A stretch of DNA of 45,828 nucleotides from Promethearchaeota archaeon (GTDB lineage Archaea; Asgardarchaeota; Lokiarchaeia; Sigyniarchaeales; SOKP01), in NCBI GenBank assembly GCA_011364925.1, contig RDOA01000027.1:1-45828 (forward strand), in the 5' to 3' direction. A program made the translations under genes and the position numbers. Positions 11,090 through 42,723 of the stretch are shown here, piece by piece (positions within the stretch are counted from its first letter, which is position 1; every line of letters starts with the position of its first letter). Below the pieces are notes generated by a model. That model was given only the letters and a program-made list of their open reading frames with translations, had not been told where the DNA came from and searched no databases.

Positions 11090-13039
11090 ATGAATACTCA
11101 GACTGAAAATAAGATTGGAAAAAATGTCGATTTAAAAAAGAAGGAAAATGAGAATGGTCTATGCCTTGGACCTATAACCAACTTAGAAGAATATGTTAAA
11201 AAAGACTGGTGGAAAAGACTTTTTAATTCCTATTACCTGAAAACCGATGGGGATGTTGTTGAAGATAAAAAAATAACATCATATGAAGCTGATTTGTTTT
11301 CAAGAATATTAAATTTAAATACCGAACATCGTATTTTGGATCTTTGTTGTGGTCAAGGACGCCATTCGATTGAGTTAGCAAAAAGAGGATATAATGATAT
11401 TGAAGGATTAGATCGTTCAAGGTATTTAATACAGAAAGCAAGAAGCACAGCGAAAAAAGAGGCTGTAGTATGCAAATTTCGTGAAGGAGACGCTAGAAAA
11501 TTACCATATTCTCCTGATACTTTTGATTTTATTATGATCTTAGGGAATAGTTTTGGATATTTTGAAGCGATAGATGATGATTTTAAAGTATTAAAAGAAG
11601 CTTTTCGTACTCTTAGACCATGGGGGAAAATTCTAATTGATATTACAGACGGCGAATACGTAAGAAATAATTTTCAGGAGCGTTCATGGGAATGGATTAA
11701 TAAAGAATATTTCGTATGCCGCGAAAGATCTCTGTCTTTAGATAAACAAAGATTAATTTCACGGGAAGTAATCACTCATGTTAATAAGGGAGTTCTCGTA
11801 GATCAATTTTATGGGGAGAGATTATATTCCCAAAATCAAATTTTAGACCTATTAGAAAAAGCAGGTTTTAGTGAAGTAACATTTCATGGGTTTATCAAAC
11901 CCGAATCTCAACGTGATCAAGATTTGGGAATGATGGAAAGAAGGCTTTTGGTAAGTGGTGTCGTAAAAAAAGAGTGGACATCTGTTAAGAAAAAAGCTGT
12001 TCCATCAGACAAAAATATCGTGGTAATTCTAGGAGATCCTAATAAACCAGATTTGCTTAAGCCGCTTACAATCTTTGATGATGATGATCTTTTCACCATT
12101 GATCAGTTGAAAGCAGCTTTAAAAAAGGTTGAGGGATATAATTTTATTTTTTTAGATGAACATGACACTCTAATCCAAGAATTACAAAAATTAAAACATA
12201 AAATTGACTTTGTTTTTAATTTATGCGATGAGGGTTATTACAACGTACCAAGAAATGAGTTACATGTTCCGGCTTTATTAGAGGTACTTAAAATTCCTTA
12301 TTCTGGTTCCGGTCCACAAAGTCTTGCTTTCTGCTACGATAAATCATTAGTAAGAGGTATCGCCAAAGAGTTAGAAATTCCTGTTTCAGAGGCAATTTAC
12401 ATTAAACCCGAGGATAAAATCATTGACTTACCATTATATTTCCCAGCTATAGTTAAACCTAATTTCGGAGATTCTAGTTTTGGTATAACTCAAAAGAGCG
12501 TGGTCAACAATGGAGAAGAACTTCTTAACGCTATAAACGAAATAAGAGAGAAATTTGGGTATGACAAGCCAATTTTAATTGAACAATTCCTCACTGGAAA
12601 GGATCTAACATTAGGAATTATTGGTAACCCTCCTGATAATTATAAAGTTCTCCCAATTATCGAAGAGGATTATTCTGCTTTACCAAATGAATTGCCTAAG
12701 ATATGTGGATATGAAGCTAAATGGTTACCAGATTCACCTTATTGGAATATCACATCAATACTCGCTGAAATTCCAGAAGAAACAAGACTATTTATTGAAT
12801 CTTGTTCCTTAAAATTATTCGAACGGTTAGAATGTAATGACTATGTAAGATTTGATTGGAGACTGGATGGTGAAGGAAATCCAAAACTACTAGAAGTAAA
12901 TCCAAATCCCGGATGGTGTTGGGATGGACACCTAGCCAAAATGGCTAAATTTGCAGATATATCCTATAAAGAGATGTTAAAGATGATTATTGATGCTGTA
13001 GAACGACGTTTAGATATTTCAAAAGAAAAATCAAACTAA
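11090..13039 (+). CDS. Class I SAM methyltransferase fused to a D-Ala-D-Ala-ligase-like ATP-grasp domain
   Basis: ILDLCCGQGRH motif I; C-half PYSGS, DKSL, VKP..GDSSFGI, RFDWR, LEVNPNPG. Confidence 0.85.
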   Translation: MNTQTENKIGKNVDLKKKENENGLCLGPITNLEEYVKKDWWKRLFNSYYLKTDGDVVEDKKITSYEADLFSRILNLNTEHRILDLCCGQGRHSIELAKRGYNDIEGLDRSRYLIQKARSTAKKEAVVCKFREGDARKLPYSPDTFDFIMILGNSFGYFEAIDDDFKVLKEAFRTLRPWGKILIDITDGEYVRNNFQERSWEWINKEYFVCRERSLSLDKQRLISREVITHVNKGVLVDQFYGERLYSQNQILDLLEKAGFSEVTFHGFIKPESQRDQDLGMMERRLLVSGVVKKEWTSVKKKAVPSDKNIVVILGDPNKPDLLKPLTIFDDDDLFTIDQLKAALKKVEGYNFIFLDEHDTLIQELQKLKHKIDFVFNLCDEGYYNVPRNELHVPALLEVLKIPYSGSGPQSLAFCYDKSLVRGIAKELEIPVSEAIYIKPEDKIIDLPLYFPAIVKPNFGDSSFGITQKSVVNNGEELLNAINEIREKFGYDKPILIEQFLTGKDLTLGIIGNPPDNYKVLPIIEEDYSALPNELPKICGYEAKWLPDSPYWNITSILAEIPEETRLFIESCSLKLFERLECNDYVRFDWRLDGEGNPKLLEVNPNPGWCWDGHLAKMAKFADISYKEMLKMIIDAVERRLDISKEKSN

Positions 13040-15156: not shown

Positions 15157-15429
15157 CTTTTTTACCCAGAAACAGGGTTTACTGCTTCCTTAAATTTAAT
15201 ATGCATGAAAACTCATCTAAACTTAAAAACATTTCTTCAAGTTTCATCTTTAGGCTCTTGGTCATTTTCTAAACTCGGAAAAATAAAGTTAAGTTCGATT
15301 TTGACACCCTTTTTTAAAGAACTTGAGTTCTTCTGAGACTAATTATATTTAGGAATTATTAAATATATCAAGAACATTCTATTGATTAGTTGTTATTTTG
15401 AAAACTTTATTTTGTTGAGATGAGATTTA

Positions 15430-16221
15430 ATGGATTATGAAGATATATTGTTTGAAAAGAAAGATGGAATTGCTAGGATAACCATCAATCGTCCTCAACG
15501 TTATAACGCTTGTACGCAACAGACCGTCCATGAACTGATTGACGCGTTTAATCGATGTATGGAAGATGAAATAGGTGTTGTTGTGTTTACTGGTGCTGGA
15601 GAAAAGGCATTTTGCACAGGAGGAGATCAGACCACCCGTGAAAAAGGAGGCTACAAAGGAGGTTACATGCTACCATTAGAGGTGGGCTGGCAACATGTGA
15701 CTCGATTAATTCGTACTTTACCCAAACCTGTCATCGCTCGAGTAAATGGATACGCGATTGGGGGAGGTCATGTGTGGCATGTTGCATGTGATCTAAGTAT
15801 TGCTGCAGAACACGCTCAACTTGGACAAGCAGGTCCCCGTGTTGGCTCATTTGATCCTGGATATGGAACGGGAGATCTAATGCGTGCTGTTGGAGTAAAA
15901 CGAGCGAAAGAGATATGGTTTCTTTGTCGTAGATATACTGCTCAACAAGCTCTAAATATGGGTTTAGTTAATGCAGTAGTACCATACGAAAAATTAGATG
16001 AAGAAGTTGAAAAATGGTGCCAAGAAATATTAGAAAAAAGCCCGACTGCTTTGAAGATGTTGAAATTTGCGTTCCTCGCCGAATCAGATGGGACGCACGG
16101 TATTACACAATTAGGTGTTGGAGGGTTGTCTCTCTATTATGGTACTGAAGAAGCTGTGGAAGGTAAAGATGCGTTTGTAGAAAAACGCAAAGCAGATTTT
16201 ATGAAATTTAGGAAGAAGTGA
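15430..16221 (+). CDS. MenB/BadI-like crotonase-family enzyme
   Basis: FCTGGDQ, GYAIGGGH, GPRVGSFD motifs of the MenB/BadI subfamily. Confidence 0.85.
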   Translation: MDYEDILFEKKDGIARITINRPQRYNACTQQTVHELIDAFNRCMEDEIGVVVFTGAGEKAFCTGGDQTTREKGGYKGGYMLPLEVGWQHVTRLIRTLPKPVIARVNGYAIGGGHVWHVACDLSIAAEHAQLGQAGPRVGSFDPGYGTGDLMRAVGVKRAKEIWFLCRRYTAQQALNMGLVNAVVPYEKLDEEVEKWCQEILEKSPTALKMLKFAFLAESDGTHGITQLGVGGLSLYYGTEEAVEGKDAFVEKRKADFMKFRKK

Positions 16222-16228
16222 GGAGATA

Positions 16229-17080
16229 ATGGAAATCAAAAATGTATGCGTAATTGGTGCTGGAGTGATGGGCTCAGGAATCGCACAGTTAGCTTCAATA
16301 TATGGATATCAAGTAAATTTAGTCGATATTAATGAAAACATTCTAGAAAAGGCGAAGAGCAGTATCGAAAAGAACTTGAATAGATTTTTCGTGGCAAAAG
16401 GAAAAATCTCCGATAATGAAGCGGAAGAAATTCTTAATAGAATCCGATTAGTAGCGGAAAGAGAAGACGCGATAACGGATGTTCAAATCGTAATTGAAGC
16501 TGTCTTTGAGGATATGGATTTAAAACAGCAGCTATTTTCCGAGCTTGATGAAAAATGCGATGAGGACATCATACTAGCGTCTAATACTTCATCATTGAGT
16601 ATAACCGATATTGGAACAAAAGCAAAAAATCAAGAGAGAATAATAGGAATTCATTTCTTTAATCCTGCTCCAGTAATGAAATTAATAGAATTAATTAAAG
16701 GAAAAAACACTTCAAATGATGTTTTGGAAACCGCCATGAAATTTTCTGAAAGTTTGAATAAAACCGTTGTTACTGTAAACGATTCGCCTGGATTTATAAC
16801 AACTAGACTAATTTATGTTTTATGCAACGAGGCAATAAACATGAAGAAAGAGGGTATTGCGAGCACTGAAGATATTGATACTGCGGTAAAATTAGCTTTT
16901 AACTTTCCAATGGGACCGTTGGAACTGTCTGATTTAGTAGGTAATGACATTTATCTTCACATTGGAGAATATTTGGCCAAAGAACTGGGAGAACATTATC
17001 AACCAAGTCCATTATTAACGAAAATGGTCAAAGACAATTATTTTGGTCGAAAAACAAATAAGGGATTCTATAATTATTAA
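16229..17080 (+). CDS. 3-hydroxyacyl-CoA dehydrogenase
   Basis: GAGVMGSGIA, IEAVFE, SNTSS, HFFNP, PMGP motifs. Confidence 0.92.
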   Translation: MEIKNVCVIGAGVMGSGIAQLASIYGYQVNLVDINENILEKAKSSIEKNLNRFFVAKGKISDNEAEEILNRIRLVAEREDAITDVQIVIEAVFEDMDLKQQLFSELDEKCDEDIILASNTSSLSITDIGTKAKNQERIIGIHFFNPAPVMKLIELIKGKNTSNDVLETAMKFSESLNKTVVTVNDSPGFITTRLIYVLCNEAINMKKEGIASTEDIDTAVKLAFNFPMGPLELSDLVGNDIYLHIGEYLAKELGEHYQPSPLLTKMVKDNYFGRKTNKGFYNY

Positions 17081-17108
17081 AAATTTTTAAGAATTAAAAA
17101 AAAAAGGC

Positions 17109-17354
17109 TTAGAAGTATCCATAATTCCCATAATAAACATTTCTTTTCGCAACATCCGGGGAAACTAACTCTTCCAGATATTTTGCGTTATATTTTCCTT
17201 TCTTTAACAATTTTAATAACGCTTTTTTAACTGGCTTTTGTTCTTCCTGTGGTTTCGCAAGTTCAGCTTGGTCTTTTTTAAGTGGAAATTCCTCTAAAAC
17301 TACTACTTCAAATCTTAATTCCGGTTCCACTTTCTTTAAAAGCACTTGTTCCAT
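17109..17354 (-). CDS. Small hypothetical protein
   Basis: 81-aa ORF preceded by an AGGAGGT SD site. Confidence 0.6.
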   Translation of the reverse strand: MEQVLLKKVEPELRFEVVVLEEFPLKKDQAELAKPQEEQKPVKKALLKLLKKGKYNAKYLEELVSPDVAKRNVYYGNYGYF

Positions 17355-17380
17355 GATGATTTACCTCCTTTTTGTAATTT

Positions 17381-17620
17381 TTATAGATCTTTTAAGCCAA
17401 ATTTGAATTTGTCAGGATTTAAATAATAATATCCTTCCGATTTTTTCCATCTTTTAAGCGATCGATCTTTATCAACCTGCTCCAATTCTTCTTTTTCAAA
17501 GGGGAATTTTACAGGCTCAAGTTTTACCTCATCTCTGAGACTTTCCTTCAAAACTTCATATAAAGACTGATCTAACTCAAAATTGACTCTACTTTTACTT
17601 TCTACCATGTATTTCGCCAC
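17381..17620 (-). CDS. Small hypothetical protein
   Basis: 79-aa ORF co-oriented with the downstream small gene; ATG preceded by GAGGTG. Confidence 0.55.
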   Translation of the reverse strand: MAKYMVESKSRVNFELDQSLYEVLKESLRDEVKLEPVKFPFEKEELEQVDKDRSLKRWKKSEGYYYLNPDKFKFGLKDL

Positions 17621-17814
17621 CTCTCCCGATAGTTTTTCGGGTTTTCGTTAATATAAAATAGGGTAATAGTATATATTTAGTTTTTAATTGCGAACTTGAA
17701 TTGGACTTTTAAATTATGATTAAACCGTTCCAATATTTAATTATTTAAGGGGAAATAGTGAGTTTTTTTTAGGGTAGTATTTTTAATTATTGTTAATCAA
17801 TTCAATTTTAGATA

Positions 17815-17997
17815 GTGAAAATAGTGCCAAACAAGGAAATAATATGTGAAAATTGCGGAGAAAATCCCAATGGTATGATTTATGAATGTTATGAGTGTAG
17901 TAACCAAATTTGTGATAACTGTGCTAACATTTGTGACAAATGCAATGAAAGTTTCTGTGATGGTTGTTATCACGATCATATAATCGCTTGTAAATAA
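17815..17997 (+). CDS. Small Cys-rich zinc-finger protein
   Basis: 60 aa containing five CxxC pairs plus HxH. Confidence 0.6.
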   Translation: MKIVPNKEIICENCGENPNGMIYECYECSNQICDNCANICDKCNESFCDGCYHDHIIACK

Positions 17998-18402
17998 ATG
18001 ATAGGAAGTTATATTATTGTAGTTTTTTTACCGGAGAGAATAACTATTCAAGTTGGGGCTTTGGGGAATCTTGACTTCATTAGAGGATATTATTTATACG
18101 TTGGATCTGCTATGGCAAAAAAGGGCCCAAATACTTTAGAAAATAGAATTAAAAGGCATCTTTCAGAATCTAATCAAAAAAAACTCTTTTGGCATATAGA
18201 TTACTTGTTAACAAAGGGAAGTTGTAAAATTTCCAAAATATACCTAATACCTAGCACTATTCGGTTAGAGTGCACTATTTCTAACGAGATCCTAAGGGTA
18301 TCGGATAATTTCGTCAAAGATTTCGGTTCCAGTGATTGTCGATGCCCAAGTCATCTTTATTATTTCACAAAATTCACAGGGTTGGAAGAATTATCTAATT
18401 GA
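17998..18402 (+). CDS. DUF123 / GIY-YIG (Uri) nuclease family protein
   Basis: GSY..YLYVGSA, RIKRH, WHIDYL, FGSSDCRCPSHL. Confidence 0.85.
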   Translation: MIGSYIIVVFLPERITIQVGALGNLDFIRGYYLYVGSAMAKKGPNTLENRIKRHLSESNQKKLFWHIDYLLTKGSCKISKIYLIPSTIRLECTISNEILRVSDNFVKDFGSSDCRCPSHLYYFTKFTGLEELSN

Positions 18403-20796: not shown

Positions 20797-20920
20797 AACT
20801 TTTCCACGACCTCCATGGTTCTTACTAAAATGAATTGAAAAGGATATTAAACTCTTAAAGAGTCCAATTTTTGCACTTTTCTAACTTTATGTATATATAA
20901 ATAAAGAGGAAAGGATAAAA

Positions 20921-22348
20921 CTACTTTTTCAGTCTTCGAAAAGGTGGTTTTAATCCATCAGGGAGTGGAGAAGTATAAATTTTATCTCTGTGCATATATT
21001 CGTGTTCTTTACATGCTTTCTCGACTAATTCTGGATTATTCATAAATTCAAGAGATGAAACAGCCAATACTTTTGCAGCGGTTAACATTCCCTTATGGCC
21101 AATACTCATTCCAGATGTGGCTACATTTTGCCAAGAATGCCCCGGAGAGCCCATTATTTCACAAGCGGTTCCAAACTCCCCAAGTGGCACTTTCCACGAC
21201 ACATCAGCAACATCCGTGCTTCCTGGAAGCACGTTACCTTCTCCTATTGGTGGGATTATTACTTTGTTCAAAGGCTGGCTGAGAATCGCTTTTGCCAATT
21301 CCATCATGTTAGGAGGGATCAACCGATAATATCCATCAAGAGAATCTTTTGGTATCGATTTTTTTAACTCGTTTGCGAAAGCTATATCTTCTTTGTTAAA
21401 TCTTGGTGCCCCAACAGTTCTCATTGAATTTGAAATTACCTCTGAAACTATGGGAGTATACATCGTATTGTACGTACCGCTTAAAAAATCGATATCCATA
21501 GTAGTTTCTGTCATCAAAGTAGCTCCTTTTGCTATGTTTACTAATCTCGCGTATAATTCTTCTACCTGATGTCGTTCTGGAGCACGAACAAAGTAGTGAA
21601 CTTCAGCTTCGGCAGGAACTACATTTGGAGCGTCACCTCCATGAGTTATAACATAGTGAAGCCTTGCGTCGGAAATCATGTGTTCCCTCATAAAGTTTGC
21701 CCCTATATTCATTAACTCTACACCATCTAACGCGCTTCTCCCATTCTGAGGGTCTCCTGCTGCGTGGGCTGTTCTTCCATGAAATTTGAACTTAACAGAA
21801 TTCATTGCTAAGCATGTCATTAAATTTAGCATGTTAAAGTTCCCAGGATGCCATGCAAGAGCTATATCTACATCGTTGAACAAGCCTTCTCGTATCATAT
21901 AACCTTTTGCGTTAAATATTTCTTCAGCAGGACACCCGTAAAATCTAATTGTCCCTTTAACGACTCCTAAATCTATCGCTTCTTTTACAGCTATTACTGC
22001 TCCTAACGATCCTGCCCCTAAAAGATTATGTCCGCAACCATGACCCGGTGCCCCTTCGTTTATTACTTCTCTATAAGGTTCTGCTTTTTGACTAAGACCC
22101 GGAAGCGCGTCATATTCTCCTAATATTCCAATTACGGGTTTTCCTTTACCATAATCTGCGTAAAATGCTGTAGGCATGTCTGCAACATTCGAATTTACTG
22201 AAAAACCTGCTTCGTCTAATGTTTTAATCAGGAGTTGTGACGATTTAAACTCTTCCAAACCCAATTCCGCAAATCCCCAGATCTGATCGCTAACATCTAT
22301 TAATATATCTTGGTTTATTTTAACGCTCTTGATTGCTTGTTTAAACAT
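20921..22348 (-). CDS. M20 amidohydrolase, AbgB-like
   Basis: GEYDALPGL, GHGCGHN, PAEE, WHP, GSTDVADVSW, PGHSWQ. Confidence 0.88.
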   Translation of the reverse strand: MFKQAIKSVKINQDILIDVSDQIWGFAELGLEEFKSSQLLIKTLDEAGFSVNSNVADMPTAFYADYGKGKPVIGILGEYDALPGLSQKAEPYREVINEGAPGHGCGHNLLGAGSLGAVIAVKEAIDLGVVKGTIRFYGCPAEEIFNAKGYMIREGLFNDVDIALAWHPGNFNMLNLMTCLAMNSVKFKFHGRTAHAAGDPQNGRSALDGVELMNIGANFMREHMISDARLHYVITHGGDAPNVVPAEAEVHYFVRAPERHQVEELYARLVNIAKGATLMTETTMDIDFLSGTYNTMYTPIVSEVISNSMRTVGAPRFNKEDIAFANELKKSIPKDSLDGYYRLIPPNMMELAKAILSQPLNKVIIPPIGEGNVLPGSTDVADVSWKVPLGEFGTACEIMGSPGHSWQNVATSGMSIGHKGMLTAAKVLAVSSLEFMNNPELVEKACKEHEYMHRDKIYTSPLPDGLKPPFRRLKK

Positions 22349-23530: not shown

Positions 23531-23660
23531 TCTTATTTTTTTCCTTTTATGTGTACTTTTTTTTAAACTCAAAAATTCTAAACTTAAATAATATTAAATC
23601 TTAAATATCACTAACAAGATTATTCTAATAATTCTTAATATATTATTTAAGATGAGATGA

Positions 23661-24017
23661 ATGAGTGAAGGAAGGATTCAAGAGGTTCTGGAAAGTCTTA
23701 AATCGATAAAAGGAGTCCATGGAGCAGCAATTATCGAAAAATTTGGATTGATTAAAGGTAGTGCTTTACCAGGTTGGGTAGATCCAGAGGCAGTTGCCGC
23801 TATGGTTACGCTTATCTTAAAAGCTTCTCAAAGAGCAACAAAGGAACTAGAACAGGGGCAGTTTTACAACGCAATAATCGAAAGTGCTAAAGGAAGAATA
23901 TTGTTTTCTGAGATAAAAGGTAATATATTGACTATTATTGCAACTACTGATGCAAAACTGGGTATTATTAATTTGAAACTTGGCGCAGCAGTAGAAGTTC
24001 TTCGAGAGCATTTATAA
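23661..24017 (+). CDS. Roadblock/LC7 (MglB-like) domain protein
   Basis: 118 aa, GVHGAAII..GL, central helix, AKLGII C-terminal helix. Confidence 0.85.
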   Translation: MSEGRIQEVLESLKSIKGVHGAAIIEKFGLIKGSALPGWVDPEAVAAMVTLILKASQRATKELEQGQFYNAIIESAKGRILFSEIKGNILTIIATTDAKLGIINLKLGAAVEVLREHL

Positions 24018-24044
24018 GAAAGATGGTATATTCTTTACTTTTAC

Positions 24045-25499
24045 TTATTTTTTCAGTAATGCTAACATTAAATCTCTTGTCAATGTAGGATCGGCTTGTC
24101 CTTTTGTTTTAGCCATCACTCTCCCGATTAAAGCTTCCAATGCCTTAGGATTCTTGACATAATCCTGAACTATCTGAGGATTTTCTTTTATTACCTCTCG
24201 ACAGTGTTTTTTAATGATTTGTTCGTCAGATAGGCGCGTTTTACCTCTCTCTTTAATAATATGTGAAATAGATATCCCTTGCATCATATCATCTACAAAA
24301 CCTTTAGCAATTTTAGTAGTGATCTTTCCATCCCTAATATATTTAATTAAATCTTCCAAATGTTTAGGGGTAATCTTGGTTTTGTCAATTGTAGTAGTGT
24401 GTTCATTTAGCCATCCAGAAATATTATTCATTAGCCAATTACAATATTGTTTATATTCCGTAGACCCAAAAGTGGGATCAGCGTTTGCGCCTTCTTCATA
24501 GAAGTCAGCAATGCGTTTGTCTAAAACTAAATTCTCAGAATCGAATTCAGATAACATATATTCTCTACGTAGTCGTTGAGCCCTCTCATTTGGCATTTCT
24601 GGAAGATATTCCTCGACTTTTTGTACAAAATCTTCGTCAATTTCAATTGGAACAAGATCTTGTTCTGGAAAATATCGATAATCCTCTTCAAATTCCTTAG
24701 ATCGTAGCGAAATTGTAATTTTTCTTTTATCATCCCAGTGTCTTGTCTCTTGAGTTAATACTTTTCCTCGTTTAATAGCGTTTTTCTGTCTTATAATCTC
24801 GTGTCTTAACGCTCGTTCAACTTCTTTAAAACTATTAATATTTTTTACTTCGCTACGCGCGTGACCTTTAATGGAAATGTTAGCATCAACTCTAACCGAA
24901 CCCTCTAACTCTAAATTCGAGATTCCAGTGTACTGAACGATAGATTTTAATTGCTTAAGAAATTCTCTCGCTTCTTCTGGCGAACTAATTACGGGGTCAG
25001 TTACAATTTCAATCAAACATACACCAGATCGATTATAGTCAACTAAAGTAAATGGTGAAGAAGCTATACTTCCCTTATGAACTAATCGAGCAGGATCTTC
25101 TTCGAGATGAATCCTATTTAGATTAATGTCTTTTTTATGGTTATTCAATCTGATCGTGATTTTTCCCCCATCTGCAAAAGCTCTTCCTCCCGCTTTGTTA
25201 TATTGGCTAATTTGAAATCCTTTAGGTAAATCTGGGTAGTGATAATTCTTTCTAAAGAACCAAAACTGGTTATTAATATCACATTCCAAAGCTATGGCTA
25301 ATCTTGTAGCAAATTCGATTGTTTTTATATTTATTGTTGGAAGTGAGCCGGGTAAACCTAAGCATATTGGACAGACAAATGTATTAGGTTCAGCACCACG
25401 ATAATCATTACTACAACTACAAAAAAGCTTTGTTTTAAGATTAGTTAATTGGATATGGACTTCTAATCCAATAATAACTTCATGATCTTGACTATTCAG
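24045..25499 (-). CDS. gatB: Asp/Glu-tRNA amidotransferase subunit B (probable CTG start)
   Basis: Frame continues upstream of the ORF-track start through IGLEVHIQL, TKLFC, PNTFVCPICLGLPG to CTG at 25499; RKNYHYPDLPKGFQISQ, HLEED, DYRYFPE. Confidence 0.93.
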   Translation of the reverse strand: MNSQDHEVIIGLEVHIQLTNLKTKLFCSCSNDYRGAEPNTFVCPICLGLPGSLPTINIKTIEFATRLAIALECDINNQFWFFRKNYHYPDLPKGFQISQYNKAGGRAFADGGKITIRLNNHKKDINLNRIHLEEDPARLVHKGSIASSPFTLVDYNRSGVCLIEIVTDPVISSPEEAREFLKQLKSIVQYTGISNLELEGSVRVDANISIKGHARSEVKNINSFKEVERALRHEIIRQKNAIKRGKVLTQETRHWDDKRKITISLRSKEFEEDYRYFPEQDLVPIEIDEDFVQKVEEYLPEMPNERAQRLRREYMLSEFDSENLVLDKRIADFYEEGANADPTFGSTEYKQYCNWLMNNISGWLNEHTTTIDKTKITPKHLEDLIKYIRDGKITTKIAKGFVDDMMQGISISHIIKERGKTRLSDEQIIKKHCREVIKENPQIVQDYVKNPKALEALIGRVMAKTKGQADPTLTRDLMLALLKK

Positions 25500-33600: not shown

Positions 33601-33882
33601 ATCTGCTATGAATTCTCTAATAAAATTGGGAGGAATAAAAGGCTTCAAAATTACAATATAAAGAAATCTAGAACAGAAATTGAAATTCTAAAGATATTAG
33701 TAAGTTTTTATGTTTTTGTGTTTATCTCTTCTGCGATTAGATAATCTAAAGCGTAAACAAAATGGGCTAACATTTATAATTACGCAATACCATACATTAT
33801 TTGTAAATTGTTAAATTATCATCTAAGTTTCAACTATATTTGATAGATTTACCTTTACAAAACACAGAATAAATCGATTCTT

Positions 33883-35947
33883 ATGTCTGAGGATAAGAAT
33901 AATTCTTACGATGCCGATGACATCCAAGTACTAAAGGGCCTGGACGGCGTAAACTAATTTATAATTCATGAATAGTAGCCAAAGGCGCAGGCCTGCTATG
34001 TATATTGGGGATCAAGGCAAAAAAGGGCTCCATCATTTAATTTATGAAGTTCTGGATAATGCCGTTGATGAAGCAATTGGTGGATTTGCCAATGAAATCA
34101 AGGTTACTCTTTTTAAGGACAATTCTGTACAAATTTACGATAATGGACGGGGGATACCTATTGATACACATCCAGAATTTAACAAACCAGCCCTTGAAGT
34201 AATCATGGAGCATTTACATTCTGGAGGTAAATTCGATAACAAGAGTTATAAAATTTCTGGGGGACTACATGGTGTTGGACTTTCCGTTGTCAATGCATTA
34301 ACAGAATGGATGGATGTAGAAATTTGCAGAGATGGGTTGTTGTATAAACAAAGATTCTCTAGAGGGAAAAAAGAGACAGAACCAGAAATAACTAAGAGTA
34401 ATAGTAAAGAAACCTACACAAAGATTACATTTTATCCAGATGACGAGATATTTGAATTTGAAAACAATGAGGAGATTTTTAGTCCTTCGTCAATTTCTAG
34501 TAGAATGCGAGAGTTAGCTTTCCTTACTCCTCAAGCTCGATTTGAACTACATAATAAAATCATAGACGAAAAAGAGGAGTTTTATTATGAAGGTGGACTC
34601 AAAGAATTTATTGCGTATTTAAACAAAGATAGACAACCCCTTCATAATGATATTATTTACATAAGTGATTCTGCTGAAGATGAAGATGGTGCCCTTATCT
34701 ATTGTGATTTAGCGATGCAGTATAATACGACTTATCAAACGAATATTCAAACCTACGCTAACACGATTAATACCATAGAGGGAGGCACTCATCTTACGGG
34801 CTTTAAATCGGCTCTTACAAGGACATTCAATTCTTATATTGAAAATTTCATGGATAAAAAGAACAAAGAACATGTTTTATCAGGTCCTGATACAAGGGAA
34901 GGATTATCTGCTGTGCTTTCTATTAAGCTGCCAAATCCACAATTCGAAAGTCAAACGAAAATAAAACTCGGTAATCCTGAAGTTAGGCAAGTTGTAAGTC
35001 AAATTGTCACAGAGAAATTGGCTCAATACTTAGAAGAACACCCTGAGAATGCTAAAAAAATAGTGATGAAAACAATTAACGCTAAATTAGCAAGAGAAGC
35101 CGCCCAAAAAGCACGGTCATTAATTCGTAGAAAATCGATTCTGGATGGTGCTAGAATGCCCGGAAAGCTAGCCGACTGTTCCTCGAATGATCCAAGAGAG
35201 TGTGAAATTTTCATAGTTGAAGGCAATTCTGCAGGTGGATCCGCAAAACAGGGGAGGGATAGAGCTTATCAAGCGATTTTGCCTTTAAGGGGTAAAATTT
35301 TAAATGTAGAAAAAGCACGAATGGATAAAATACTGCAAAATAATGAAATCCAATCAATTATTAAAGCCTTGGGAGTAGGAATTCAAGAATTCTACGATGT
35401 TAACGGTGATGAAAATGGTAATGGAGAGGAAGAAAATGCTGATGATGCCGAAGACCTAGAATCTGAATTTGATTTAACCAAGCTGAGATACCATAAAACG
35501 GTTATTATGTGCGATAGTGACATAGATGGGCACCACATCGAAACTCTTCTATTAACGTTTTTCTTTCGATACATGCGGCCATTAATTGATGAGGGTCATT
35601 TGTATCTTGCAGTTCCACCCCTATATAAAGTTTCGTATAAAAAAGATAAATTTTATGTCCTTTCAGATAAAGAGAAAGAAGAACAAATTAAAGAACTGAA
35701 GGAAAAGTATAAATTAAAAAATACTGATACAATTAAGATTCAGCGGTACAAAGGATTGGGTGAGATGAACCCCGATGAACTATACCAAACTACGATGAAT
35801 CGAGAAACTAGAACCTTAAAGAAGGTAACATATGAAGATTATATCGAAAATGATTTAATCTTTACAAAATTGATGGGAAGAGAGGTATTATCTCGTAAAA
35901 AGTATATATTCTCCAATTTTGATAAGGCAACAGAATTGGATATTTAA
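33883..35947 (+). CDS. gyrB: DNA gyrase subunit B, split by a 31-nt intron: join(33883..33951,33983..35947), 677 aa
   Basis: Exon 1 MSEDKNNSYDADDIQVLKGLDGV joins RRRPAMYIG; EVLDNAVDE, GGLHGVG, PLRGKILN, QRYKGLGEM. Confidence 0.93.
33952..33982 (+). other. Putative BHB intron in gyrB (31 nt)
   Basis: In-frame TAA plus frameshift; bulges UA|A and AA|A, central GGCG/AGCC (one mismatch), exon stem GGCCUG/CAGGCC. Confidence 0.82.
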
Positions 35948-35987
35948 TTTTAGCTTTTTGGCTTTTTATTGAAAATAAAATTAGGTT

Positions 35988-38450
35988 GTGATTATGACTA
36001 CAGAAAATATTAGGGAAGTATCTTTAAAAGAAGAAATGAAAAGTAGTTATATTGACTACGCTATGTCTGTTGTTATCGCTCGGGCAATACCTGATGTGAG
36101 AGACGGACTGAAACCCGTGCATCGAAGGATAATTTACGCAATGGCAGACAATAATTACTTCTACAATCAACCTCATGTGAAATGCGCTAGAATTGTTGGA
36201 GAGACAATGGGGAAGTACCATCCTCACGGGGACGCGGCAGTTTATAATAGTTTAGTTCGAATGGCACAAGATTTCTCAATGCGATATCCTTTAATAGATC
36301 CTCAAGGAAATTTCGGTTCTATTGACGGCGATCTTCCCGCTGCTATGCGATATACTGAAGCAAGGTTAGCAAGAATATCGATGGAATTGATTGAGGATTT
36401 AGACAGCGAGACTGTAGACTTTCAGCCTAATTTTGACGATAGTCTGCAAGAACCAGTCTTTTTACCAGCTAAACTTCCTAACATGTTAATCAACGGAACA
36501 AAAGGGATCGCAGTAGGAATGGCTACGGCTATGCCTCCTCATAATTTAACAGAAGTTTGTAATGGGATTATAGCAACAGTAGACGATCCTGAAATATCCA
36601 TTGAAGAATTGATGGAAATTATAAAAGGTCCAGATTTTCCAACTGGAGGAACAATTACAGATACAGATGGTATTTACGACGCATATACAACTGGTACGGG
36701 AAATCTAACTTTAAGAGGAACTGTTGAACTTGAAACTAAAGGGGGTAAAGATAGTTTAATTATTACTGAGATTCCTTATCTAGTAAATAAAACTGTTCTC
36801 GTTGAATCCATTGCCAGATTAATCAAAGATGGAGTATTAAAAGACATTCGAGATTTACGAGATGAGTCTGATAGAAAGGGAATGCGAGTTGTAATAGAAC
36901 TCAGTAAAAACGCTCAACCCGTTATTATCAAAAATATTCTTTTTAAAAGAACCAAACTCCAAGCAACGATTAGTATAAGCAATTTAGTACTTATCAACGA
37001 AGGTAAACAACCAAAGATTCTCAATCTAAAAGAGTTAATCGAGGAATATATTGAGCACCGACTTAAAGTAATATATAAACGGACTGAATTTTACCTTAAA
37101 AAAGCAAAAACAAGGCTTCATAGAGTTGAAGGGCTCTTAATTGCTCTAAATAATATTGACGATGTCGTTAAAATCATCAAGAGCTCTAAAGACACTGATG
37201 ATGCGAAGGAAAAATTAAAAGATGCTTACGATTTAAGTGATATTCAAGTCCAAGCAATACTAAGTATGCCACTCTCCCGTTTAACTAATTTAGAACAGCA
37301 AAAATTAGTGGATGAGGAAAAATCACTTAAAGAAAGCATTAAAAAATATGAACAAATTTTAGCTAGTAAAAAACTCCGATTAGATATCATAAAACAAGAA
37401 TTAACAGAATTAAACGAGAGATATGGAGACAAAAGGAAAACTAAAATCGTGATTCTTAATCAAAACGAGAAAAAGGAAATCCGAAAGCAAGATTTAGTGA
37501 AAAAGGAACCTACAATTATAATTTTCACTAAAAATCAATATATTAAAAGAATTTCAGTGGAAGAATATAAGGCGCAAAGGCGTGGTGGGCGTGGTAAAAA
37601 AGGAATGACCGTTCGCGAAGAGGATATAATTGACGATCTCTTTGTATGTTCTACTCACGACACAATTTTAATATTTACTTCTAAAGGGCGAGTTTATTCG
37701 TTAAAATGTTTTGAAATTCCACTACAGAAACGTACTGCAAGAGGAAAGCCAATTGTTAATTTAATTCCACTACAAACTGAAGAGAAGATTTCTGACATGA
37801 TCCCTATTCGTAACTTCAACACTAACGAAATGCTAATAATGACAACAAAAAACGGTATAATAAAGAAAACCCCTTTAAGGTTATATGCTAAGTTTAAAAC
37901 CACGGGAGTAAGAGCTCAAAGAATTAGATCGGACGACGAATTAATAAGCGTTAAAAGGCTTTCAAACGATATCCAAGATATTTTTATTGCAACAAAATTA
38001 GGATATGCCATTAGATTTGACGAAACTGAGTTGCGCGTTTTAGGAAGAACATCAATGGGCGTGAAAGGAGCTGAGTTAAGGGAAGGAGATGAAGTAATTG
38101 ATAGCCTACTCGTTACTGATGATAATATTATCTTGACATTAACAGAAAAAGGTTATGGGCAACGAACCCTCTTAAAAGAGTATAGAAAAACTGGACGCGG
38201 AGCGAAAGGAGTTAAGAATATTACATTGGATCCAATTAAAAAAGACAAGGTTATCGCAATAAAAATGGCAAAACAAATGGATATTTTGATCGGAACAGAG
38301 CAAGGACAAGTCATTAGAGTAGATGTCGACTCGATAAGGATAACTCATAGAAAAGCTAAAGGAGTTAGGTTGATAAAATTATATGCTAATGACTCCGTTG
38401 TAGCTATAGGCAAATGTGCTACACAAATCGAAGAACAAGAAGAATCATAA
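35988..38450 (+). CDS. gyrA: DNA gyrase subunit A
   Basis: RAIPDVRDGLKPVHRR, YHPHGD, AAMRYTEA (catalytic Tyr), GyrA-box QRRGGRG, beta-pinwheel repeats. Confidence 0.96.
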   Translation: MIMTTENIREVSLKEEMKSSYIDYAMSVVIARAIPDVRDGLKPVHRRIIYAMADNNYFYNQPHVKCARIVGETMGKYHPHGDAAVYNSLVRMAQDFSMRYPLIDPQGNFGSIDGDLPAAMRYTEARLARISMELIEDLDSETVDFQPNFDDSLQEPVFLPAKLPNMLINGTKGIAVGMATAMPPHNLTEVCNGIIATVDDPEISIEELMEIIKGPDFPTGGTITDTDGIYDAYTTGTGNLTLRGTVELETKGGKDSLIITEIPYLVNKTVLVESIARLIKDGVLKDIRDLRDESDRKGMRVVIELSKNAQPVIIKNILFKRTKLQATISISNLVLINEGKQPKILNLKELIEEYIEHRLKVIYKRTEFYLKKAKTRLHRVEGLLIALNNIDDVVKIIKSSKDTDDAKEKLKDAYDLSDIQVQAILSMPLSRLTNLEQQKLVDEEKSLKESIKKYEQILASKKLRLDIIKQELTELNERYGDKRKTKIVILNQNEKKEIRKQDLVKKEPTIIIFTKNQYIKRISVEEYKAQRRGGRGKKGMTVREEDIIDDLFVCSTHDTILIFTSKGRVYSLKCFEIPLQKRTARGKPIVNLIPLQTEEKISDMIPIRNFNTNEMLIMTTKNGIIKKTPLRLYAKFKTTGVRAQRIRSDDELISVKRLSNDIQDIFIATKLGYAIRFDETELRVLGRTSMGVKGAELREGDEVIDSLLVTDDNIILTLTEKGYGQRTLLKEYRKTGRGAKGVKNITLDPIKKDKVIAIKMAKQMDILIGTEQGQVIRVDVDSIRITHRKAKGVRLIKLYANDSVVAIGKCATQIEEQEES

Positions 38451-38465
38451 ATTTTGAATTTCGTT

Positions 38466-38825
38466 CTATTTATTAAGATATGGAATCAAACAGAGAAATA
38501 TGAAATCTTCCTGACCAAGGTTTTTTATTCCATGCTTCTCATTTGGAGGAATATATACAACATCTCCTCTTTCTACGATTTTTTCTTCTCCTGAATCGTT
38601 GAAAAACTTGCCTTTTCCACTTAAAATATAAATTTCGTGATCTTGAGAATGACTATGTAGTGGTACGTTTGTTTCTGCCCTAAGTTCAAAGCGTCTCATA
38701 GCAAAGTTATTGGCACCATCGTGTTCCTTGTCAATTAACCATCGAACATATACATTTTCTACGGGAGTACCATCGCTTAATACTGCGGGTTTATTCTCCA
38801 CTTGCCTATAATTTTTAATTCGCAT
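38466..38825 (-). CDS. Cupin domain protein
   Basis: PLHSH..HEIYILSG and GDVVYIPPNEKH motifs; internal ATG 38825 avoids overlap with the divergent gene. Confidence 0.85.
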   Translation of the reverse strand: MRIKNYRQVENKPAVLSDGTPVENVYVRWLIDKEHDGANNFAMRRFELRAETNVPLHSHSQDHEIYILSGKGKFFNDSGEEKIVERGDVVYIPPNEKHGIKNLGQEDFIFLCLIPYLNK

Positions 38826-38894
38826 AATTGAAATAATTTTTAATCTGATAAAATAATATCTTATATTAATTGAATTTTCTATCAAGACTTTAAT

Positions 38895-39824
38895 ATGAAA
38901 ACAGAGTTTAATATCGGTTTCGATTGTTCTCATCAGAACAAGTTAAGTATCGAGGATCCAGGCTTTAATGATTTTATAGAATATCTCTTCAACTCGGATT
39001 TAAAGTTGGGAAAAATCGAAGCAGGAATCACATATGAAAAGTTGTCAGACTATAACGTTTTCATAATAGGAGTTCCTTTTGCTGGATCTTATATTACCGT
39101 CGAAGAAATCGACAGTTTGACCCAATACGTGAAAGATGGCGGGTCGCTTCTCATCATTAATGATAAGGGGGGAGAGTTCGAAAATAAGAATAATTTAAAT
39201 GAGCTAACGAAAATTTTTGGTATTAAATTCAATCCAGATCAGCTCTTTGATAACGATCATTTTTCTAAGGATATTTCTCGCCCGATAATTAAAGATTTTA
39301 AAAAACATTTTATAACTCGTGATCTTACCCAAATTATTCACTCTAACGGATGTACTATCCAAATCGATAAATCAGTAGAAACTGAAGATATAGATGTGTC
39401 AGCAATCGCGTTCTCCTCTGAGGATTCCGCTTGGCACAAAATATTTAATGGGGAAGTATGGTTAGATGAACCTGTAGAAAAAGCTCCCGTTATCGCTATC
39501 AGTCATTACGGTATGGGAAAAGTGGTAGCTATCGGAAATTTGTCTCTTTTTTCAGGATTTCATGCGTTATACGGTATACAAGCTGCTGATAATTTTAGGT
39601 TGATTTCTAATATCATAGCTTGGCTTATGAATAAAGCCCACTCCAAGGAAGCACAGTTATCTCAGCCAATTTTTATCACTATTCCTGTTGAACAAGATTT
39701 ATACTATTGGATGAAAGAAAAACTAGATGAAGAACGCTGGCAGAATGTTGAAGAAATCATAAACTTTGCTCTAAAAGTAGTTAAATTTAGAATGAGAAAG
39801 CAAGAAAGCCTAGAAGATTTATAG
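38895..39824 (+). CDS. GIFT/DUF4350-like (class I GATase-like fold) protein
   Basis: FDCSH.N, YVKDGGSLL, NLNELTKIFGI, GMGKVVAIG, DNFRLISNIIAWL pattern of GldG/IFT52-type domains. Confidence 0.6.
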   Translation: MKTEFNIGFDCSHQNKLSIEDPGFNDFIEYLFNSDLKLGKIEAGITYEKLSDYNVFIIGVPFAGSYITVEEIDSLTQYVKDGGSLLIINDKGGEFENKNNLNELTKIFGIKFNPDQLFDNDHFSKDISRPIIKDFKKHFITRDLTQIIHSNGCTIQIDKSVETEDIDVSAIAFSSEDSAWHKIFNGEVWLDEPVEKAPVIAISHYGMGKVVAIGNLSLFSGFHALYGIQAADNFRLISNIIAWLMNKAHSKEAQLSQPIFITIPVEQDLYYWMKEKLDEERWQNVEEIINFALKVVKFRMRKQESLEDL

Positions 39825-39844
39825 GGAATATTAATTAGATAATT

Positions 39845-40408
39845 TTGAAAAATAAGGTTTTGAGTATGATTAAAACAGAAAAAGAAGAAATTTTAATTGG
39901 TTTGCTATCGGATACACACATTCCAGCAAGAACACATAGCATGCCTGATAGAGTGCTTGAGGATTTTAAAAATAGAAAGGTCGATTATGTGTTTCATTTA
40001 GGAGATTTCACTTCTTTTGAGGTATATGAGAGATTAATAGAAGCATTCGGGAGAGATAAAGTAGTCGCGGTTAAAGGAAACATGGATTTTGACTCCAAAA
40101 TAAAAAATTCCCTGCCCGATACTTTGGAGTTTAAGATTTACGAACATCATGTTCTGATGCTCCACGGAATGGGTGGTCCAAACATGATAATAAGAAGATT
40201 GATTAAAAACTTAGACTTGCTCAATTCAAATTACGATCTAATAATCTTTGGGCATACACATAAACCAGTTAACGAAAAACATAACGGTATTCTATTTTTT
40301 AATCCCGGAACTACAACTCCTATAGATAATAAACTTACCGTAATAAGTTCTTACGGCTATCTTAGAATTTCAAAAAATAAGATTGAACCTGAAATTATAT
40401 ATCTTTAA
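39845..40408 (+). CDS. YfcE/MJ0936/Vps29-like metallophosphoesterase
   Basis: SDTH, HLGD, GNMD, HG, GHTH, NPG. Confidence 0.88.
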   Translation: MKNKVLSMIKTEKEEILIGLLSDTHIPARTHSMPDRVLEDFKNRKVDYVFHLGDFTSFEVYERLIEAFGRDKVVAVKGNMDFDSKIKNSLPDTLEFKIYEHHVLMLHGMGGPNMIIRRLIKNLDLLNSNYDLIIFGHTHKPVNEKHNGILFFNPGTTTPIDNKLTVISSYGYLRISKNKIEPEIIYL

Positions 40409-40438
40409 ATTATCTAAAATAAGTAAGATGGTTGAAAA

Positions 40439-41174
40439 TTAGAAACTTTCCATTGTTGTACCCGATAATTTCTTATAATGATTAAGCACAGCTTGTCGAG
40501 CTGCGTAGACAAAAGCTCTTTTCACGTTTACCCCCGTTATCGCTATGGTTTCATATATTAAGCAGTGATTAAGCTTGGCGGTGTCGAGCACCTGTCGTAA
40601 CTTCGATATCTCTATTATACCTTCTAAATCTCTTTTATTTGCTAAAACAACGATTGGAACCTCAGGTGGATCGAAAGGTTTCGGTGGAATTAGCTTATCT
40701 CCGTAAAACTTAAGCAGTTCCTTGAGAGACCAGATGTTCTTGAGTAGTTAATCCCTAATTATTAACTAATTCTCCCCATTGGTCAATCAAAGAATCCCAT
40801 GTGAATATTACCGCGTCTGTACCTTTAAGAACCGTTTGGCGCTGGAATTTGTGGCGTCTCTGACCGGCAACTGTCTGTATAGTTTCTCGAGACGAGAAAT
40901 CTAATATACCTGAAATACCACGTTAGATACGCGTGCTACAACCCGGTCAAAGAATAATGTTCGGCCCGTTGGGTCTTGGATTTGCTGCATCTAGTGAGAA
41001 ACACCAAAATAGTAATTTCATATCACCTGAAGCAAGTCCCTTTATAAATAACAATCGAAAAGATTATTATTCTTTATTGTAGACCCACTCAAGTGCCGTA
41101 GTTTTTCCGCCTAAACTTGGTCCGTAAAAGCAAATTTTAAAGACTAAGGTTCCATCGCCCCTACGCGATGGCAT
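40439..41174 (-). CDS. MglA-family small GTPase, 5 exons: complement(join 41174-41072, 41041-41022, 40990-40904, 40874-40770, 40738-40439), 204 aa
   Basis: Spliced product has G1 YGPSLGGKTT, GRTLFFD, YTVAGQ, LANKRD, ETIA; SD GGAGGTGA upstream; absent from the ORF track. Confidence 0.9.
40739..40769 (-). other. Putative BHB intron 4 of the GTPase (31 nt)
   Basis: In-frame TAG plus frameshift; central GGAG/CUCA (one mismatch), bulges AA|U and AG|A, stem UAGUUAAU/AUUAACUA. Confidence 0.85.
40875..40903 (-). other. Putative BHB intron 3 of the GTPase (29 nt)
   Basis: In-frame TAG; central GUAU/AUAC, bulges AU|U and AG|A, stem UUUCUCG/CGAGAAA. Confidence 0.88.
40991..41021 (-). other. Putative BHB intron 2 of the GTPase (31 nt)
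   Basis: Frameshifting; central GGUG/CACU, bulges AU|A and AG|A. Confidence 0.82.
41042..41071 (-). other. Putative BHB intron 1 of the GTPase (30 nt)
   Basis: In-frame TAA TAA; central AUAA/UUAU, bulges AG|A and AA|A, 9-bp intron stem. Confidence 0.82.
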
Positions 41175-41346: not shown

Positions 41347-42723
41347 TTAGTCGCCTAAAGAATTTGAACTACGCTTCCTACTAAGACTAAATAAATAACT
41401 ATCCATCATTGAACGAAAAACAATAGGGCTTAAGTTCAATGCATATACTAATTTATCTGGAATGATTTTTCCATCTTCAAGATAGCTACTTAAATCTGAT
41501 TGTATATAAACCTTGTTCTTTATCTCAAACAATGATTTTACATCATCTAAGAGCTTTTTATTTGACGAATAAATCCTACCTTGATTACTGCCAATATAGG
41601 TACCATCACCATCATAAAAGCCCAAAAGCCACGCATGAGCCATGCGGCCTGAGTGTGTAGTAAACCATTGGATACTATTAAACCTTGCTTCCTTCTTAGC
41701 GTTTATAATAAATGACTTGATGACCTGGGGTACACCGATTTCCCCTGATTTTAAACCATGAAAATCAAGACTCTTTAAACTTTCTGCTATTTGACTAGAA
41801 GAAAACCTTATCTTTGAGGTCCTACCAGTTCGAACCTTACCTTTATAAGTCCAAAATCTCCTCTGCTGAGTAATTCGAGAAGAATCTAAACCCATGGAAT
41901 AACAAAAGTGTCTAATAATCACCTCATCTTTAATTGCTAATTCTATCGAGATTCTTGGTCGTGTTGATGACAAGCTTCCGTCTGCAGACAAGAAACCTAG
42001 CCAATATGCTTTAAATATCAAATTAATTTCATTAAAGAAATTTTTGCGCTTTATCGAATAGTCCTTTTCATGCCAATAATGTAAATCTGGATTATGCAAT
42101 TTGTATCGATTTATGTTCTCCAGAAGATTCATTGCATTACTTCTAAAAATGTTTTTTAAAGATTTCTTAAATTCTTCTAAACGTTCTAAAGTAAACTTAT
42201 AATCTGGATTATACCAACGCTTTGACTGTGGATTATTAATTGTATCCAATACCCGATGTATAAAATCTTTATCCCCTGCCAATATCAAGCTAAGTTCTTC
42301 ATTAGTAATAGCTACTTCGCCAGAAATTCTTCCTAATTCATTTTCAAGCTTTTCAATGAATTTTAGAGTACTCAAACCAGAATTAAGATTCTTATATTCT
42401 TGGATAATATCAATACAGCATACAACTTTAGCACCGAAGTTCCCTGCTAAATTCTTCTCAAGGAGACCCAGACTAGTCTCTGTATCTTCAAACCTGAATT
42501 CTGGATTGTAGTCTCTATTTTTTGAATTATTTATTTTATTTTTAACCCTTGCTATGTAATGAAAATTACTACCTCTCCATAATCTTGAAAGATCTCGATC
42601 AGAAAAACGCTTTATACGATCTGGGAAGATTTCAGCTAGGATTTCAGAATGAACGCGTAGTTCTTGACGCAAATCTTCAATTAAATCTAAAGTTGAATAG
42701 ACGGTATCATTAGTATAAGTCAT
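41347..42723 (-). CDS. Free-standing double-motif LAGLIDADG endonuclease-like protein
   Basis: AYWLGFLSADG and AWLLGFYDGDG motifs; about 220-aa N-terminal extension. Confidence 0.8.
   Translation of the reverse strand: MTYTNDTVYSTLDLIEDLRQELRVHSEILAEIFPDRIKRFSDRDLSRLWRGSNFHYIARVKNKINNSKNRDYNPEFRFEDTETSLGLLEKNLAGNFGAKVVCCIDIIQEYKNLNSGLSTLKFIEKLENELGRISGEVAITNEELSLILAGDKDFIHRVLDTINNPQSKRWYNPDYKFTLERLEEFKKSLKNIFRSNAMNLLENINRYKLHNPDLHYWHEKDYSIKRKNFFNEINLIFKAYWLGFLSADGSLSSTRPRISIELAIKDEVIIRHFCYSMGLDSSRITQQRRFWTYKGKVRTGRTSKIRFSSSQIAESLKSLDFHGLKSGEIGVPQVIKSFIINAKKEARFNSIQWFTTHSGRMAHAWLLGFYDGDGTYIGSNQGRIYSSNKKLLDDVKSLFEIKNKVYIQSDLSSYLEDGKIIPDKLVYALNLSPIVFRSMMDSYLFSLSRKRSSNSLGD

Follow-up and report, generated by a model that had tools for sequence, protein, structure and literature searches.

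Two genes in the window, by which we mean the whole 45,828-nt stretch of DNA analysed here, are interrupted by five inserts that we regard as very probably relaxed bulge-helix-bulge (BHB) introns spliced from mRNA by EndA and RtcB. The broader reading is that in Lokiarchaeia the tRNA endonuclease and ligase routinely process core-gene mRNAs with several introns, and that these ORF-less mini-introns pass between species at the DNA level, either as immunity partners of free-standing LAGLIDADG nucleases or as their passengers; we consider it somewhat more likely than not. If it is correct, a single such nuclease causes introns to pile up in the 5' half of the gene next to it, and protein-coding BHB splicing operates in many genes, including one of five exons, of the closest archaeal relatives of eukaryotes. 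Multi-intron mRNA processing could then exist without a spliceosome, and core-gene calls in these genomes would be truncated. The same reading would offer a testable answer to how BHB introns that lack an ORF arrive and spread, with one nuclease, a predicted target at GTPase codons 102–105, and natural intron-plus and intron-minus GTPase alleles.

The source, a genome of 3.9 Mb, had been taken for a probable Asgard archaeon, and the relatives of its gyrB, which are Promethearchaeota, bear this out: the organism is a Promethearchaeota (Lokiarchaeia) archaeon. On the plus strand, gyrB (33883–35947) comprises exon 1 (33883–33951; 23 codons for the conserved N-terminal arm), a candidate BHB intron (33952–33982; 31 nt, phase 0), and exon 2 (33983–35947), with a spliced product of 677 amino acids. 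The small GTPase gene (41174–40439, minus strand) encodes an MglA-like protein, with Arf and Ras Pfam hits found in an intact ortholog. Its exon 1 (41072–41174, 103 nt) holds the P-loop and is followed by intron 1 (41042–41071; 30 nt, phase 1, with in-frame stops), a 20-nt micro-exon 2 (41022–41041), intron 2 (40991–41021; 31 nt, phase 0), exon 3 (40904–40990, 87 nt), intron 3 (40875–40903; 29 nt, phase 0), exon 4 (40770–40874, 105 nt), intron 4 (40739–40769; 31 nt, after codon 105), and exon 5 (40439–40738, 300 nt). The spliced GTPase has 204 amino acids, and both spliced products are without internal stops. The spliced GTPase is about 95% identical to its relatives; the best stored protein is 94.6% identical, and none equals the spliced form.

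Insert lengths of 31, 30, 31, 29, and 31 nt had been claimed in the initial annotation, and all five inserts are present as described. In DNA alignments with 17 same-genus GTPase genes and 24 intron-less gyrB genes, each insert is an exact gap relative to the orthologs, and the gaps fall precisely at the predicted intron boundaries in both genes, the outcome that the annotation had anticipated for such an alignment. Its single cut rule, after bulge nucleotide 2, likewise recovers the ortholog protein in 5/5 cases. With seven BHB registers scored per insert by an ad hoc score, the top-scoring register gave ortholog residues for all five, and for GTPase intron 3 this register is the only placement that does so.

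The BHB architecture originally described is confirmed with one qualification: two of the central helices have 3/4 pairs, and the exon-exon stems are interrupted. The central helix is perfect (4/4 pairs) in GTPase introns 1–3, and it has 3/4 pairs with a G-A mismatch in gyrB (GGCG/AGCC) and GTPase intron 4 (GGAG/CTCA). Intron stems are good, exon-exon stems contain mismatches or internal loops, and the BHB-constrained fold, with its exon stems interrupted, lies 0–2.5 kcal/mol from the minimum. On account of the two central G-A mismatches and the interrupted exon stems, we class the motifs as relaxed BHB. The chance of such scores at random coding sites, calculated for the best of seven registers over 20,000 draws with the ad hoc score, was 0.002, 0.006, 0.006, and 0.015 for GTPase introns 1 to 4, respectively, and 0.074 for gyrB, so that the gyrB score by itself is not significant (p about 0.07). 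Introns of the group I, group II, or spliceosomal kind would show a ribozyme core that is hundreds of bases long, or GT-AG termini. The window inserts are none of these, being single hairpins of 29–31 nt of which none begins with GT; the central helix, the cut position, and the presence of a two-subunit EndA and RtcB all agree with the BHB class. In the pathway that we propose, the pre-mRNA would fold so that exon nucleotides −6 to −3 pair with intron nucleotides −6 to −3, the two-subunit EndA would cleave each bulge behind its second nucleotide, and RtcB would join the exons to yield mRNAs for GyrB and the GTPase.

An intron occupies the same bond of gyrB in 13 other genomes (30–53 nt long, 14 copies in total). 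Across the 14 genomes, 94% of the cells of the structure are paired, with 96% pairing in the central helix. Five pairs show two-sided, compensatory changes; 0/500 shuffles reached the observed level, and slid controls gave 27–48%, these figures being open to inflation by the relatedness of the sequences. The gyrB intron of 52–53 nt at loci L077, L080, L083, L089, L091, L096, and L106 consists of the 30–33-nt form with an extra GC-rich hairpin.

Introns are present at each of the other sites in other assemblies as well. The site of GTPase intron 1 is also occupied, by a different sequence, in L369, and that of intron 2 in L086, L101, L369, and L371. A homologous intron 3 is found in L371, and homologs of intron 4 in L366, L369, and L371, with a conserved stem and helix and a variable loop. 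Copying of the window introns within the genome was rejected, given that no copy of any of them was found elsewhere in the genome within six mismatches.

The initial account of the GTPase locus was incomplete in that an adjacent homing-endonuclease gene, just outside the region it covered, was missed. This free-standing gene for a two-motif LAGLIDADG endonuclease (41347–42723, minus strand; 458 amino acids) sits between a DEAD helicase gene and the GTPase gene, 172 nt upstream of the GTPase start. Its LAGLIDADG motifs (42006–41977 and 41631–41602) keep the invariant acidic residues; a search of PDB sequences gave no match. In 50 intron-less loci the helicase gene directly precedes the GTPase gene, and the nuclease ORF is present in none of them. 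A close ortholog of the nuclease occurs in 4/135 family genomes, which belong to three genera, and in each it adjoins the GTPase gene. All four of these genomes have a GTPase insert at codons 102–106, compared with 2 of about 96 others; the Fisher value for this association (4e-6) overstates it because related genomes are not independent. Five further loci retrieved by the nuclease sequence all carry an intron at codon 102 or 105, so that nuclease-bearing loci have an intron at codons 102–106 in 9/9 cases. The prediction was then made that close relatives of the nuclease would be accompanied by the window's codon-105 intron, and this was found at three loci, with nucleases 68–79% identical; nucleases less closely related to it are accompanied by different introns, again at codon 102 or 105. 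Nuclease loci have from one to four introns in the GTPase gene. All 13 mapped GTPase intron sites lie within the first 105 of 204 codons, a 5' bias that may be due in part to the conserved N-terminal motifs. Of the exon bases that adjoin the codon-105 intron, nearly all are the same in L369; the identity is otherwise about 75%.

These gene associations suggest that the adjacent nuclease gene probably explains the hotspot, with GTPase intron 4 as its probable partner, and we consider nuclease-driven spread of introns at the GTPase gene to be likely. The LAGLIDADG enzyme would cut intron-less GTPase alleles near codons 102–105, an intron at these codons would shield the carrier allele, and break repair would copy the nuclease gene, the 5' half of the GTPase gene, and the introns in between into the recipient, thereby creating a hotspot. 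The pattern fits collaborative homing with hitch-hiking upstream introns. This process has been described for cyanophage S-PM2, with the nuclease F-CphI and an intron in psbA (Zeng 2009, via PMC6083498 and PMC2988022); self-cleavage is prevented by the intron, and the whole stretch from the cut to the nuclease gene is copied during repair (PMC6083498). Both systems have a free-standing nuclease gene beside a conserved gene and an ORF-less intron that blocks, or here would block, self-cleavage. Flanking DNA is co-converted in the F-CphI system and may be so at the GTPase locus, where cleavage is predicted from the gene pattern. The phage system differs in its group I ribozyme and Endo VII-type enzyme; in the present one the gene is cellular and archaeal, the intron has 31 nt and would be spliced by proteins, and the nuclease is of the LAGLIDADG type.

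A nuclease that is incidental to the hotspot is the most serious alternative, although we consider it improbable. Ancient introns would have been lost repeatedly from the 3' side through cDNA recombination, with the nuclease simply sharing their ancestry. Two genomes with an insert at codons 102–106 and no nuclease favour this possibility, as does the position of most other introns, which are also near 5' ends and have no nuclease neighbour. However, the carriers come from three genera, their two sites, which are 9 nt apart, are occupied by three or more different intron sequences, and in L373 an intron is found at codon 105 even though the nuclease gene lies 3' of the GTPase gene. Moreover, precise loss from gyrB should leave sister-like flanks, whereas the 5' flanks of close pairs that are discordant for the intron are not alike.

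Several additional features were noted at GTPase loci. The nuclease gene of L373 (2501–4745) is a relative that is convergent with the GTPase gene, and the codon-105 intron there is unrelated. When ten intron sites were located on GTPase alleles that lack the introns, they showed a tendency to fall within hairpins whose loop has 7 nt (p about 0.01, shift control). This would agree with target sites that mimic an anticodon loop, but it is no more than suggestive. The codon-105 intron of the window (40769–40739) and the codon-102 intron of G018 (L077, 16825) have 16/20 core bases in common by eye; this match may be due to chance in AT-rich DNA or to a shifted copy. In G074:C10 the 5' end of the GTPase gene (20888–21004) is about 2.5 kb from the rest (23551–24177), possibly because the first exon was replaced or a longer segment inserted. 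Locus L119 (848 and 3426, minus strand) has two GTPase N-termini, one copy with three introns.

At 12 gyrB loci with the intron, a search for a neighbouring nuclease gene gave none, and the extra ORFs there encode a peptidase, a chemoreceptor, and a longin, and a LAGLIDADG profile search found none beside the genome's five other introns; homing is therefore not a general explanation. In a GyrB tree the intron is present in 13/62 rows and requires 11 changes, with clustering no greater than that of shuffled labels. In the 48 bases 5' of the gyrB site, the nearest sequence to an intron-bearing copy is another intron-bearing copy in 14/14 cases, compared with 5.5/52 for the remaining sequences in the same test; outside the paired region the value for intron-bearing copies is 11.5/14. 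Downstream of the site, the nearest neighbours of intron-bearing copies mostly lack the intron. This affinity confined to the 5' flank suggests that the gyrB intron may have been transferred between lineages together with its 5' flank. In the window, the gyrB leader and exon 1 (33820–33951) are a near match to those of G009 (L070), whose downstream gyrB is of another clade. At L107 (about 15180–18100) the nuclease forms the C-terminal portion of a 974-amino acid ORF, and another LAGLIDADG protein, whose N-terminus is acidic, is encoded about 4 kb upstream of gyrB.

The presence of five introns in 46 kb had been taken to imply many more genome-wide; this was overstated, with four of the five being in one gene and a census pointing to approximately 10–25. 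For the census, 1,395 genes were compared with 2.7 Mb from two relatives by a protein-to-DNA aligner without a motif term. It yielded eight frame-breaking inserts of 29–31 nt, all of them BHB, namely the five of the window and those of uppS, cobO, and a C11 gene; two further breaks, in aIF2-gamma and an iolM-like gene, were confirmed by motif. Among 1,234 genes of the relative G017 there are four introns peculiar to it. The genome has roughly 3,500 ORFs, from which we estimate 10–25 introns per genome. Frame-breaking census inserts of 24–60 nt had a median BHB score of 11, compared with 7.5 for the null and 6.5–7.5 for in-frame indels, copies at one site not being independent in these medians; the inserts of G086 and G081 were positioned from match coordinates. 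The genome-wide BHB scan proposed at the outset, when backed by homology, retrieved four introns already known, with no mirror hit at the strict level and none new, whereas ab initio it was uninformative (5,136 true versus 5,170 mirror geometries). A search for introns common to this genome and the reference genome gave only noise, and shared introns are therefore undercounted. Among 66 neighbouring loci, introns occur only in gyrB (13/66) and the GTPase gene (6/36), with none in 20 other families, and the GTPase gene is interrupted in about 20/103 family genomes. The window is an intron hotspot. The bulge nucleotides of the census introns are strongly A-rich, and most introns of other genes lie within the first 60 codons. 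Different BHB introns are found at the same bond in aIF2-gamma of G000 C53 and EF-1alpha of G017:C11 (167345), paralogous translation GTPase genes in which the P-loop lysine codon is split after ten identical exon bases.

Given that the genes are broken by inserts with the shape of archaeal tRNA introns, their mRNAs almost certainly must be spliced. The genome has one full ortholog each of gyrB and the GTPase gene. The spliced GTPase matches the ortholog consensus at 190/200 residues, and its pN of 0.095 and pS of 0.85 are similar to those of intron-less pairs; by these sequence measures the interrupted genes are under purifying selection. It is very unlikely that they are pseudogenes broken by hairpin elements or that only truncated products are used. 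The gyrB intron does contain an in-frame ATG at 33968, which opens an ORF of 659 amino acids and was taken by gene callers as a false start, so that unspliced mRNA could give a truncated GyrB, and interrupted GTPase genes occur in about one-fifth of family genomes. However, an in-frame stop follows this ATG in L070 and L085, and the ATG is absent in L116. The lack of a second full ortholog, the single-copy nature of the inserts in the genome, and the conservation of every exon, including the 20-nt micro-exon, with saturated synonymous sites, also argue against this view.

The genome encodes an intact RtcB and two EndA paralogs, one with the catalytic Tyr, His, and Lys and the other, by inspection, without the His. 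Together with purifying selection and the compensatory changes, these enzymes support the proposal that the tRNA machinery splices mRNA, a step that we infer. It is very unlikely that removal takes place instead at the DNA level, or that enzymes different from EndA and RtcB carry it out. The relaxed motifs and an enzyme assignment made from geometry would allow for it, but the cut register fits the EndA rule in every case, and a search of metagenome contigs found no intron-less allele of this genome's sequence and no exact spliced junction.

Translational bypassing, whereby the ribosome hops over a hairpin without RNA cutting, as in T4 gene 60 and the mitochondrial byps, is likewise very unlikely. 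The inserts do form hairpins some 30 nt in length, many of which have a stop close to the 5' end, and T4 gene 60, like gyrB, encodes a topoisomerase. Bypassing fails, however, because matching take-off and landing codons are present in only 2/35 census inserts (and 1/5 window inserts); moreover, 12/35 census inserts split a codon, and the conserved exon-intron central helix would have no role. Assembly artefacts, conceivable for a metagenome assembly, are refuted by homologous or same-site introns in unrelated, independent assemblies at all five sites, with a Logan contig, which may stem from the same reads as the genome, being 100% identical across all four GTPase inserts.

Splicing by EndA and RtcB would place these introns beside the BHB intron of the crenarchaeal cbf5 pre-mRNA (Watanabe 2002; Yoshinari 2006; Yokobori 2009, PMC2738675), whose relaxed motifs are processed by a two-subunit EndA (PMC2738675). 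Both are short ORF-less introns in coding regions, often within a conserved motif, with a relaxed BHB, a cut after bulge nucleotide 2, a hetero-oligomeric EndA, and patchy gain and loss. Unlike cbf5, the present introns occur in an Asgard host and affect many unrelated genes. A single gene may have up to four of them and a micro-exon of only 20 nt, one gene family has no fewer than 13 sites, and a nuclease gene lies next to the GTPase gene. The splicing of cbf5 has been shown experimentally, whereas that described here is drawn from sequence comparison. In Haloferax, a BHB intron lies in the 5' UTR of HVO_1309, and cbf5 was named as the sole other mRNA case (Schwarz 2020, PMC7714728); HVO_1309 is also an EndA substrate in mRNA, but it is a single case with a canonical substrate in an untranslated region. 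Two studies of non-canonical introns in Asgard archaea deal with tRNA genes only (Valentin-Alvarado 2024, PMC11291895; Goswami 2026, 10.64898/2026.10.13.758758); the latter did not settle how the introns arrive and detected no mobile-element signal of a general kind. The present introns resemble these in repeated gains at BHB-compatible sites, little sharing of sequence across sites, and a two-subunit EndA, and differ from them in interrupting protein-coding genes. Our literature search, whose coverage mostly excluded subscription journals, yielded no report of BHB introns in Asgard mRNA, and cbf5 is the only archaeal coding-region case confirmed in the literature searched. Elsewhere in the window, a 649-amino acid ORF (11090–13039) encodes a fusion of a methyltransferase and a D-Ala-D-Ala ligase-like ATP-grasp domain.
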